DNA of 64,000 nucleotides from a phage. Shown here piece after piece: positions 31,447 through 33,257 of the stretch. The notes beneath the pieces were generated by a model that was not told where the DNA came from, made no database searches, and worked only from the letters and a program-made list of their open reading frames with translations. Numbering within the stretch: position 1 is the stretch's first letter; the number at the start of each line of letters is the position of its first letter. Location of the stretch: sequence record PZ452583.1. The stretch is one strand, 5' to 3'. Made by a program: the position numbers and the translations under genes.

Positions 31447-31465
<19 letters not shown>

Positions 31466-31935
31466 TCAGTGATAAAGTTATTTAAATTTTGAGTATATTT
31501 CTTTTCATCAAAAATCTTTTGCTGTCTGCGTAACCGCCATGGCATTTCAATGAACACGCACCATATCCCAGATAATATTGCTGCTGTAAAAATATTAACA
31601 AGTATGGTTAAAAGAATCCAATCTCCTATTCTGTCCATTGGATTTTTTATAAAAAAGTAAAATACGAATGATGTCACAGGAAGACTAATAATATACCACA
31701 GAATCATAATTTTATCTGTGAACCAATCAGCGTTCGTTAACTTAGCGCGACCATTATGAATACATACGAACTTATCATCTGTTATAGTAGATGGCTTAGC
31801 TGCTTGATATCCCATTCTAAACTCCCTAATTAACATTTTTTTCATATCTTCGGAACAGCCACTCCAGTCAACTCTATCAACTGAAATGCCATCATCCCCA
31901 TCATCTAAATCATACCAGCGAGTTTTTAAAATCAT
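31447..31935 (-). CDS. Membrane protein, 162 aa; first of four tandem ORFs sharing a C-terminal F-x-x-E-C-R-K-type motif
   Basis: ATG verified; two hydrophobic helices; C-terminus [11 protein letters not shown]. Confidence 0.55.
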
Positions 31936-32306
31936 TTAATTTTCCTACAATCACTCACAAACTCTTCCATTGATTCTTTTTCAATATAAGACATGTAGCT
32001 ATTATATTCCTTTAATTGTATTTTGTAATCCTTTTTTCTTTGCCAATTTATTTTAAAATTATCATAATGAAAATATAACATTGTACCAAAGAATGAAAAT
32101 AATGAAATCGCTATAGTATAATGAAGTTCACTCCAAACTTCTATTATATCTATTATACCGCTGACGTTACTACGGATGTTTAAAATAAAACAGTCAATTA
32201 ACAATCCAATAAGACTACCTGCAAGAGCTGCAAATGCTGATACGGCAAGAATTAATAGTGCCTCTGGAAACGAATATTTAACTTTATTTAGTTTTGGCTT
32301 TTGCAT
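31932..32306 (-). CDS. Small membrane protein, 124 aa (family member)
   Basis: ATG verified; TM hairpin; C-terminus EEFVSDCRKIK. Confidence 0.55.
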   Translation of the reverse strand: MQKPKLNKVKYSFPEALLILAVSAFAALAGSLIGLLIDCFILNIRSNVSGIIDIIEVWSELHYTIAISLFSFFGTMLYFHYDNFKINWQRKKDYKIQLKEYNSYMSYIEKESMEEFVSDCRKIK

Positions 32307-32680
32307 CGTGATTCCTTAACAAATTTCATAATTTCATCAAATTCATACGCAGCAAGTTTAAGCTGGTGTTCATTTTTAATCTTTTTACACTGAGCTTTCC
32401 ATTCGCGTACGCGTTTACGATAATGTCTTCCTTGATACCAGTATCCTACCCAATTTATAGGTACTAATAAAAATGGAACTACTAATGGAAGAATTAATAC
32501 TAACAGAAATATTACGCCAGATTCAATATCAGTCATAAAGTCTATAATCATTCCAACAATCAATAGAATTACAAATGATATAGCTGTCACAGGACCTATT
32601 AATACATCAGTAGAAATTAGCTGGCGCTTTAATTCATACTTTAAGGGTTTACTTGGAAGATACATTGATGGCTTTGACAT
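32288..32680 (-). CDS. Small membrane protein, 130 aa (family member)
   Basis: ATG verified; TM hairpin; C-terminus MKFVKESRCKSQN. Confidence 0.55.
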   Translation of the reverse strand: MSKPSMYLPSKPLKYELKRQLISTDVLIGPVTAISFVILLIVGMIIDFMTDIESGVIFLLVLILPLVVPFLLVPINWVGYWYQGRHYRKRVREWKAQCKKIKNEHQLKLAAYEFDEIMKFVKESRCKSQN

Positions 32681-33257
32681 ATTCTCTGCATTCCTTCACA
32701 AATTTTTCTAGTAATAAATCGCTTTCAAAATTGGGATTTTCTACGAATTTATCAAAAAGATCATCAACAATAGTTAAGATATTCTTTTTACTAAGAATAC
32801 GTTTATTTTCATGCTTCGTTTCAGAATCAACTATAAGAGTAAAGAAATATTTCTTGCCCTGAAATTTTACAGTAGTATCAATATAAAATAAATTTGACTT
32901 TTGTAAATTACGTTTAAACCGTGCATCACTTAAACTATAAACGCCAAGATAATCATAATCGTCGTTTAAATAACAGACCGTCCATTCAGGAGAAACAAAA
33001 TCAGTAAATTCAACGTCAAAATCGCATGTTAATAAATGAATTGATTCAATACTGTTAATAAGTATTCCAGGACGTATTAAAGACTTTTTACCTCTAGAAA
33101 ATCCTCTAGAAAGACTTTCATCAGTTTCATATGAAGAACCCCAATAATAATTACGTCCTTCTGCCATACGTTTAAGAGCATTTAATAATTGATCTGGAAC
33201 ATCAACCTGTCTTTGGAACTCTTCAAACATTGAATTGAAATCACTTTGCATTTTCAT
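32649..33257 (-). CDS. Hypothetical protein, 202 aa (family member by C-terminus)
   Basis: ATG verified; C-terminal EKFVKECREYVK. Confidence 0.55.
   Translation of the reverse strand: MKMQSDFNSMFEEFQRQVDVPDQLLNALKRMAEGRNYYWGSSYETDESLSRGFSRGKKSLIRPGILINSIESIHLLTCDFDVEFTDFVSPEWTVCYLNDDYDYLGVYSLSDARFKRNLQKSNLFYIDTTVKFQGKKYFFTLIVDSETKHENKRILSKKNILTIVDDLFDKFVENPNFESDLLLEKFVKECREYVKAINVSSK

Follow-up and report, generated by a model that had tools for sequence, protein, structure and literature searches.

Why do four consecutive genes of a T4-like phage end in almost the same few residues, and why are these residues encoded just where translation of the next gene begins? The question is raised by the genes e.2, e.3, e.4, and e.5 in a 64,000-nucleotide (nt) stretch of the phage sequence record PZ452583.1 (the window, to which coordinates refer unless stated otherwise). 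Over the interval 31000–33950, the window has 97% DNA identity to phage TadeuszReichstein and 93% to T4, and by this measure it is a segment of a Tequatrovirus genome. All four genes lie on the minus strand: e.2 at 31447–31935 (162 amino acids, aa), e.3 at 31932–32306 (124 aa), e.4 at 32288–32680 (130 aa), and e.5, which encodes an early protein, at 32649–33257 (202 aa). The order nudE-e.2-e.3-e.4-e.5-e.6 is the same as in annotated T4, which makes the four open reading frames (ORFs) orthologs of T4 e.2–e.5, and they match PHROGs 2203, 2330, 2604, and 2607 with E values of 1e-61 to 1e-107. A preliminary description had reported these ORFs, whose positions and correspondence to the T4 interval we confirm, and had attributed their shared ends to a repeated gene-junction sequence in a duplicated, translationally coupled family of small membrane proteins. 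We find that the feature is real and wider than that description claimed, and that its mechanism is uncertain. From codon usage and comparative data, the shared element is very probably a protein-level motif with a ribosome-binding site embedded in its codons.

A shared peptide at the ends of e.2 to e.5

All four proteins have the motif F-[IV]-x-[DE]-[CS]-R at their C-terminus or close to it. Its codons are found, on the minus strand, at 31456–31485 in e.2, 31941–31970 in e.3 (MEEFVSDCRK), 32303–32332 in e.4 (IMKFVKESRC), and 32682–32711 in e.5 (LEKFVKECRE). Up to the stop codon, the tails read EEFVSDCRKIK in e.3, MKFVKESRCKSQN in e.4, and EKFVKECREYVKAINVSSK in e.5. The shared ending that had been described is present in each protein, with two departures: e.5 runs ten residues beyond the motif, overlapping the start of e.4, and e.4 carries a serine in place of the cysteine of the other three tails.

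Translated in six frames (~128,000 residues), the window contains five matches to the pattern F[IV]x[DE][CS]R, of which four are the tails of e.2–e.5. In ~164 kb of T4-type sequence, the core pattern was found in no other real ORF. When the C-terminal 22-mers of the 109 predicted genes were compared (5,886 pairs), e.2/e.3 ranked 1st, e.3/e.5 4th, e.2/e.5 10th, and e.4/e.5 24th. The fifth strict match in the window (VIFINDSRQ, 7132, minus strand) falls within a 150-aa ORF at 7043–7495, 23 residues short of its end; it is otherwise unlike the motif and is put down to chance.

A possible, weakly indicated degenerate second copy is located inside e.4, at residues 90–102 (RVREWKAQCKKIK; 32375–32413, minus strand). 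BLASTP aligned this segment with the C-termini of e.2 and e.3, whose ends it resembles down to ..C[KR]K[IL]K, and the EW..C of the region is kept in e.4 of RB69, PSD2001, and KLB8. By eye, its DNA reads ATTAAAAATGA, compared with ATTAAATGA and TTAAAATGA at real junctions. The internal copy could be a fossil junction, though its KIK part is specific to Tequatrovirus.

Junction codons and the embedded ribosome-binding site

As had been noted from the sequence, the motif coincides with the initiation region of the next gene. At all four junctions a likely Shine-Dalgarno sequence lies within the motif codons, 5–11 nt before the ATG. It is AGGAAA in the R-K codons of e.2 (31456–31461) ahead of nudE (ATG 31450) and in the R-K codons of e.3 (31941–31946) ahead of e.2 (ATG 31935), and AAGGAA in the K-E codons of e.4 (32312–32317) ahead of e.3 (ATG 32306) and in the K-E codons of e.5 (32691–32696) ahead of e.4 (ATG 32680), all on the minus strand. 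The starts of nudE and e.2 overlap the stop codons of e.2 and e.3 as ATGA, and the overlaps in the e.5-to-nudE series are 4, 4, 19, and 32 nt. There are two in-frame ATGs for nudE, 31465 and 31450 (region 31448–31465, minus strand), of which only 31450 is preceded by a good Shine-Dalgarno (AGGAAA) and overlaps the e.2 stop as ATGA; annotation varies among public records, the first ATG being used in T4 and the second in Ac3.

The series has the overlaps or short gaps, together with a Shine-Dalgarno inside the upstream ORF, by which coupled operons are recognized. Because the genes overlap and no convincing promoter or terminator was found between e.6 and nudE, translational coupling of the e.5–nudE cistrons, part of the preliminary description, appears plausible. 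Compared with shuffled sequences, the four 91-nt junction RNAs show no gain in folding (z −0.76 to +1.03), and an RNA element at the junctions was rejected on these grounds. No sequestering RNA structure is predicted, and therefore strict dependence on upstream translation is not implied by the sequence.

At the nucleotide level, the four junctions align by MAFFT with a mean column identity of 55%. When gene ends are compared in 90-nt windows (5,886 pairs), the e.2/e.3 pair comes 25th and e.4/e.5 65th (the top 0.4% and 1.1%), e.3/e.5 comes 128th, and the other three pairs are unremarkable. The recurring junction block of the preliminary description, which was to be judged by whether these junctions resemble each other more than arbitrary T4 gene boundaries do, is borne out for half of the pairs, and the peptide similarity lies far above background. 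As a primary feature the DNA repeat was downgraded to a by-product, with only e.2/e.3 and e.4/e.5 standing out among gene ends.

Codon usage shows how the two layers are combined. In a tally of 16 motif instances from four genera, the motif arginine is encoded by AGA (5), AGG (4), CGT (3), or CGA (3), the cysteine by TGC (5) or TGT (7), the leucine at −3 by CTA, CTT, or TTA, and the phenylalanine by TTT or TTC. The octapeptide ENFIKECR is the same in RB69 e.3 and RB69 ORF133c, but its eight codons show four synonymous differences between the two. On the other hand, lysine at +2 is AAG in nine of ten cases, versus 23% genome-wide and 18% before glutamate (binomial P of ~2e-5 to 2e-6, with orthologs that are not fully independent), and the rare AGG (40 of 797 arginine codons, 5%) is used exactly where the Shine-Dalgarno falls on the R-K codons. 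Synonymous choice favors AAG-GAA for K-E and AGG-AAA for R-K, which supplies the next Shine-Dalgarno. By its codons the locus is dual-coded, with RNA-level selection visible on top of peptide conservation. The ribosome-binding site lies inside the motif codons because the genes are packed end to end, and the DNA block recurs because of this dual coding; the “junction block” is a by-product, the nucleotide shadow of a conserved peptide and a ribosome-binding site.

Alternatively, the nucleotides could come first: a junction cassette, consisting of a translation initiation region with its Shine-Dalgarno, would have been copied between gene boundaries and kept for coupling, and the peptide would be its read-out. 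The position of the downstream Shine-Dalgarno and start codon within or just after the motif fits this idea, as do the AAG/AGG bias, which is real RNA-level selection at some sites, the high rank of the e.2/e.3 and e.4/e.5 junction DNAs, and the sequence ATG-NNA-AAG-CCA that the e.5/e.4 and e.4/e.3 junctions have in common at the start of the next gene. However, the F, I/V, C, and R positions are not Shine-Dalgarno bases and vary synonymously, and the Shine-Dalgarno shifts between the K-E and R-K codons while the peptide stays constant. In addition, three of the six junction DNA pairs are ordinary, the junction RNAs are unstructured (z of about −0.8 to +1.0), and distant genera keep F, I, C, and R where +2 and +3 are not purine-rich. 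We consider the cassette improbable, and largely refuted by the codon data.

What follows the motif also varies. RB69 e.3 (ending IENFIKECRK) precedes ORF139c, a different downstream gene, and e.2 of RB69 (VERFITECRNLR) and of Dhakavirus (LNSFIKECRK) precede a 78-aa ORF instead of nudE. RB69 ORF133c (LENFIKECRGK), a 101-aa protein with two transmembrane (TM) segments found in Mosigvirus only, precedes ORF132c, and the five motif genes of RB69 are interleaved with motif-less genes. The proposal that the motif is generated by a repeated junction sequence does not survive the synonymous codons, the unrelated downstream genes, the non-adjacent motif genes, the spread over eleven genera (described below), and the modest DNA similarity. 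Taken together, the synonymous codons, the varied downstream genes and arrangements, the unstructured junction RNAs, and the conservation in distant genera indicate that the motif is selected as a peptide.

Two known kinds of arrangement are informative for comparison. Coupled overlapping cistrons are common in T4 early clusters and likewise have ATGA or 19–32-nt overlaps, a Shine-Dalgarno in the upstream ORF, and codons bent to fit; ordinary examples have no conserved peptide, whereas here the peptide is conserved and the Shine-Dalgarno moves within it. T4-type genomes also carry repeated promoter-early stem-loop cassettes, which are intergenic, conserved as DNA, and mediate module shuffling. 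Like them, the motif is a short sequence recurring at gene boundaries in a hyperplastic T4-like region, but it lies inside genes, is conserved at the protein level, and has diverged at synonymous positions.

Motif genes across T4-like phages

To follow the motif beyond Tequatrovirus, e.6 was used as an anchor (1,107 phage records conserve it), the clusters of further genera were read, and all six frames were scanned. The motif generalizes to Phi-x-x-[FWY]-[IV]-x-x-C-[RK], 0–25 residues from the stop, and was found in T4-like phages of eleven genera, all those examined. Motif ORFs occur in the e.6-linked cluster of Tequatrovirus, Mosigvirus, Gaprivervirus, Dhakavirus (where the locus examined stops short of e.6), Kanagawavirus, Jiaodavirus, Karamvirus (two phages), Tulanevirus, Bragavirus, and Pseudotevenvirus. 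Nearly all are downstream of e.6, the three Bragavirus copies just upstream of it being different in this respect.

The copies vary around a constant core. Those of Kanagawavirus are LDFVDQCRA, ELFIKNVRRK, ESFIQMCRGK, and DKFIKGCRN, and those of Jiaodavirus DEFIKYCRE, LEFVKEVRRK, NAWIRSCRK, LSWIKEMK, and ELFIAKCRAK. One Karamvirus phage has SDFINYCRG, ESFIRMCRK, ESFIDDCRR, EEFITECRG, ENFISRCRV, and LNFIQGIRG, and the other SGFVEICRR, NDFVKEVRN, and ENFIIGCRR. Gaprivervirus has NRFIAECRE, EEFIKEVRN, and ETFIKECKS, the Aeromonas Tulanevirus EMFVDYCRR, Pseudotevenvirus RB43 EKFIHSCKK, and the Proteus Bragavirus EEYIMQCRK after e.6 in addition to the three Y-[IV]-x-x-C-R copies before it. In distant genera, +2 and +3 are not purine-rich (D-Q, N-Y, K-Y, M-Q), yet the aromatic residue, I/V, cysteine, and arginine or lysine are kept. 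In the e.4 lineage, S, I, V, or M replaces the motif cysteine.

Individual loci add to this picture. In Proteus phage phiP4-3 (locus L016, 2898–4243), three soluble paralogs of ~150 aa located upstream of e.6 end in Y-[IV]-x-x-C-R-x-K-I, and the motif is therefore not confined to genes downstream of e.6. Enterobacter phage myPSH1140 (locus L013) has an unannotated 221-aa motif ORF (SDFINYCRG) at the e.5 position (~7650–8315) and an unannotated stop-to-stop frame of ~134 codons with ESFIRMCRK (~8830–9230).

Wherever the e.6 neighborhood was read, the first ORF after e.6 encodes a soluble motif protein of 163–287 aa; in RB43 it is the second ORF, with one small ORF between. A cluster set consists of one such e.5-type protein and up to approximately six further motif proteins, mostly small and with one or two predicted TM segments. 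The e.5-position proteins are linked by phmmer within genus groups only. Hhalign joins the Tequatrovirus/Mosigvirus and Kanagawavirus/Jiaodavirus groups with 82% probability over 138 columns, and other group pairs give mostly tail-only or weak alignments. On these alignments, the motif is the best conserved part of mostly unalignable proteins.

A blind test was made with a matrix built from 32 non-Tequatrovirus instances. Scores were computed on the C-terminal 30 residues of each of 244 T4-type genes (taken from the window, T4 1–35 kb, and T4 119–169 kb). The top four genes were e.2 (25.1), e.5 (24.8), e.3 (16.5), and e.4 (13.1), and the fifth scored 7.6. The tails of e.6, e.7, and e.8 (EYINSLK, KFIDELDEE, and EEYFNNMK) were considered as further copies and rejected: a loose post-hoc pattern is enriched there, but the cross-validated matrix is unsupportive, with the e.7 tail scoring 5.2 and the e.6 and e.8 tails outside the top 16 of the 244 genes. 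The cluster linked to e.6 is, as its sequences indicate, a fast-evolving protein set in which the motif is conserved as a peptide.

A second family of small ORFs (33–105 aa, two to five per locus), absent from the window, was observed at several of these loci. Its members end at the stop codon in W-[VIL]-S-S-S-x-x-C or in variants of it, for example WYPSSC and WFNSSMSC (L003 3357–4152; L004 3691–4743; L007 125–1070; L011 8710–10315; L013 8299–8825; L017 6127–6601). The family is located slightly upstream of a conserved ~320-aa protein in RB69, PSD2001, Dhakavirus, and Kosakonia 305, and also near this protein in the Karamvirus phages. The family might represent a system of modified peptides or something similar.

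The proteins, their neighbor e.6, and a possible docking role

By hydropathy, e.2, e.3, and e.4 have two TM segments each and e.5 has none, in keeping with the three two-helix membrane proteins of the preliminary description. Both e.3 and e.4 have N-termini rich in lysine and arginine, acidic loops of 13–29 residues, and tails of 45–58 residues again rich in lysine and arginine. By the positive-inside rule, e.2, e.3, and e.4 are predicted to be inner-membrane hairpins with both ends inside and the motif tail in the cytoplasm. In e.2, a soluble N-terminal domain of 75 residues precedes the two TM segments and the motif tail; the window e.2 is intact at 162 aa. Comparison of 36 cluster representatives from Tequatrovirus shows e.3 to be hypervariable in TM1 and the periplasmic loop (residues ~17–60), with a four-residue RSNV indel, and nearly invariant in the 45-residue cytoplasmic tail. 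Such a pattern hints at an arms-race surface.

Searches for relatives of these proteins led back to T4-like phages. A phmmer search with e.5 against 1.84 billion representatives returned T4-like relatives only, word-indexed searches with e.3 and e.5 gave close relatives only, and a related-locus search with RB69 ORF133c gave only two near-identical contigs. Known families were rejected for e.2–e.5, as Pfam and NCBIfam yielded nothing above curated cut-offs and PHROGs are labeled function-unknown or generically “membrane protein”. Homologs of e.5 carry a precomputed Pfam accession, PF26876. Public names include “sulfurtransferase” for e.3 and e.4, “host specificity protein” for e.6, and, once, “DNA primase” for e.3; these look like propagated annotation noise, as no family scan backs them.

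Are the membrane proteins one family? Among the four, BLASTP aligns the tails only (E 0.005–0.16), and e.2–e.5 sit in separate PHROGs. With shallow alignments, hhalign gives 59–89% probability for four pairs (e.3/e.4, e.3/ORF133c, e.2/ORF133c, and e.2/e.3), all colinear from TM2 to the tail, and 1–11% for two. The proteins e.3, e.4, and ORF133c and the C-terminal half of e.2 have a common architecture of an inside N-terminus, TM1, a short loop, TM2, a basic cluster, and a helical tail with the motif, and the layout from the inside N-terminus to the tail recurs in other genera. Of the duplicated small-membrane-protein family proposed earlier, there remains a possible set of paralogs suggested by these profile alignments (e.2, e.3, e.4, and RB69 ORF133c); e.5, which is not a membrane protein, falls outside it.

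If such duplications occurred, the motif might be a mere relic of them, each tandem copy carrying the 3′ end of the upstream gene, so that the tails reflect common ancestry and have no present function. This would account for the adjacency of the four genes in Tequatrovirus, the colinear TM2-to-tail alignments, the apparent internal copy in e.4, and even the motif on soluble e.5, provided that the duplication unit began inside the upstream tail. However, the remainder of each protein has diverged past BLAST or PHROG recognition, survival of the motif from Aeromonas phages to coliphages requires purifying selection, and the motif is the part of the e.5-position proteins that has changed least. 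Of the readings weighed here, we regard the relic as the least probable.

If it is the peptide that is selected, the motif residues themselves may indicate a role. Positions −3, 0, +1, and +4 (L/I/M, F, I/V, C) form an i, i+3, i+4, i+7 hydrophobic stripe adjoining an invariant basic residue, with a helical hydrophobic moment of 1.3–1.5 on the Kyte-Doolittle scale and a negative mean hydrophobicity. From the stripe and the basic residue, the helix could be a common docking handle: on the cytoplasmic side of the inner membrane, the hairpin proteins and soluble e.5 would all use it to attach to a single partner. Such a role as a protein–protein docking helix is, to our minds, just short of an even chance on sequence grounds. 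The combined explanation that we favor overall, a conserved peptide motif with an embedded ribosome-binding site and a shared docking helix, seems slightly better than even.

The stripe could instead contact lipid. A membrane-targeting amphipathic helix would tether e.5 to the inner membrane and settle the e.2, e.3, and e.4 tails onto the bilayer. Its C-terminal position, the stripe flanked by lysine and arginine, the hydrophobic moment, and its presence in one soluble and several membrane proteins would fit such a role. The MinD and FtsA targeting helices are similarly short and C-terminal, with aromatic, aliphatic, and basic residues arranged amphipathically. Unlike them, the motif shows sequence-specific conservation across genera, and three of its four carriers here are already integral membrane proteins. 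Lipid-binding helices vary widely and are only loosely constrained in sequence, whereas Cys-Arg and the aromatic residue hardly change across eleven genera; many copies are acidic at −2, −1, and +3, which reduces the net charge, and the mean hydrophobicity is below zero. We think the lipid-anchor model unlikely.

Which protein the docking helix might engage is suggested by the neighborhood. Upstream of e.5 on the minus strand are e.6 (33299–33892) and e.7 (33967–34299), and downstream of e.2 are nudE (31010–31450 or 31465) and e (30478–30972), all identified by T4 synteny. A strong sigma-70/early-promoter-like site (TTTACA-17-TATAAT, 33937–33965, minus strand) upstream of e.6 is the likely start of an e.6-to-nudE transcription unit. 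Between e.6 and e.5, a C(UUCG)G-type GC hairpin with a UUCG tetraloop (GGGGC-TTCG-GCCCC, 33276–33296, minus strand) may split this unit or stabilize the e.6 message. In the T4 proteomics of the supplement to PMC9697503, proteins e.2 to e.6 are all detected and their RNA is classed as early, and the accumulation classes of the four motif proteins differ although this early RNA is shared.

The AF2 (AlphaFold 2) model of e.6 (pLDDT 77) has an N-terminal helix, a helical hairpin of 55 + 60 residues, and two short C-terminal helices, corresponding to the N-terminal amphipathic helix, long alpha1-alpha2/3 hairpin, and shorter C-terminal helices found in the ESCRT-III/PspA/Vipp1 fold. In a Foldseek search of the PDB, its top ten matches (E 6e-4 to 0.08) are all Vipp1 or archaeal CdvB2, aligned from end to end. 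Profile searching against PDB sequences gave weak colinear Vipp1 matches (E 1–2), an hhalign comparison with an approximate PspA sequence gave a local match (E 0.1), and a GenBank depositor’s HHpred note calls the e.6 homolog of Klebsiella phage KLB8 PspA-like. An assignment as PspA by sequence was rejected for want of Pfam support, and only the fold-level assignment was kept. The modeled fold suggests that e.6 is probably ESCRT-III/PspA/Vipp1-like.

By analogy, the partner of the docking helix could be this co-transcribed and co-conserved protein, in the way that PspB and PspC engage PspA, an identification that we put forward as doubtful. As in E. coli, a coiled-coil protein of the PspA/ESCRT-III type (e.6, by fold) is encoded with very small inner-membrane proteins in one expression unit, and their cytoplasmic helical tails could engage it. 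The differences from PspA and PspB/PspC are considerable: the sequences are unrelated, with no match here to Pfam PspA_IM30, PspB, or PspC (neither PspB nor PspC is among the Pfam/NCBIfam matches of e.2–e.5, all of those listed being below the curated cut-off); two-TM hairpins and a soluble protein share a Cys-Arg motif, not a leucine zipper; and the proteins are phage-encoded and early in infection, their interaction with e.6 being proposed from the analogy. Short C-terminal amphipathic helices also serve as portable handles in other ESCRT-III-type systems, where MIM helices bind MIT domains and the Vipp1 tail binds Hsp70. There the helix is on the ESCRT-III protein itself, and here it is on the neighbors, with the e.6 tail not among the top 16 of 244 genes in the matrix test.

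A further reading starts from the invariant Cys-Arg near the C-terminus, which could be a regulatory tag, for instance a degron or a site of modification on the Cys or Arg, recognized by a protease or chaperone of the host or by an enzyme of T4. As background, T4 encodes arginine-specific ADP-ribosyltransferases; as gene context, nudE, which encodes a Nudix hydrolase, closes this transcription unit; and the accumulation of the four proteins differs in the T4 data despite shared early RNA. Against a tag, known C-terminal degrons are non-polar, not basic. We consider a tag very improbable, and the codon and cross-genus data argue strongly against both a degron or modification tag and the nucleotide cassette as sufficient explanations.

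Several points weigh against the explanation that we favor. The docking role of the motif is inferred from conservation and gene context. Every instance adjoins a tight downstream gene, and comparison alone never fully separates the RNA contribution. The motif is not uniform, its cysteine being replaced in the e.4 lineage. The AF2 model of e.5 is of medium confidence (pLDDT 65), with no meaningful fold match found, and the motif, in the last predicted helix (180–195), may be part of e.5’s own fold. At least one member is dispensable in the laboratory: e.2 of lab T4 (KJ477684; locus L001, 2940–3440) is shortened to 102 aa by a 1-nt frameshift, with TM2 and the tail readable in another frame, and T2/PP01-type phages appear to be without e.2 (a gapped match, with no e.2 annotated). 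Finally, Pfam PspA_IM30 is matched by none of 31 e.6 homologs at E ≤ 1.

With respect to T4 biology, e.2 to e.6 are expressed early proteins without an assigned function. Full-text searches of a literature library found no published description of the motif, of e.2–e.6, or of a phage PspA homolog; among the literature found, these genes are listed only in the proteomics supplement cited above (PMC9697503). Should the motif prove to be no more than a structural helix, the gain would be a modest one for annotation. The locus also offers a tidy case of dual coding in nature: the same codons serve a conserved peptide and the ribosome-binding site of the following gene, and the bias in synonymous choice can be measured. 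In each T4-like genus examined, the motif marks between one and about seven proteins per genome, and it brings approximately 40 “hypothetical” ORFs together in one functional guild. More speculatively, and with the same reserve as for the choice of e.6 as partner, T4-like phages may have their own ESCRT-III/PspA-type module for membrane remodeling or maintenance, in which e.6 would be the polymer core, the [FWY]-[IV]-x-x-C-R helix the adaptor handle, and the diversifying hairpins (e.2, e.3, e.4, and analogs) and the e.5-type protein would recruit or regulate e.6 early in infection. By tying the guild to a gene that resembles viral PspA/Vipp1/ESCRT-III, the motif opens the management of the host inner membrane by T4 to experiment.

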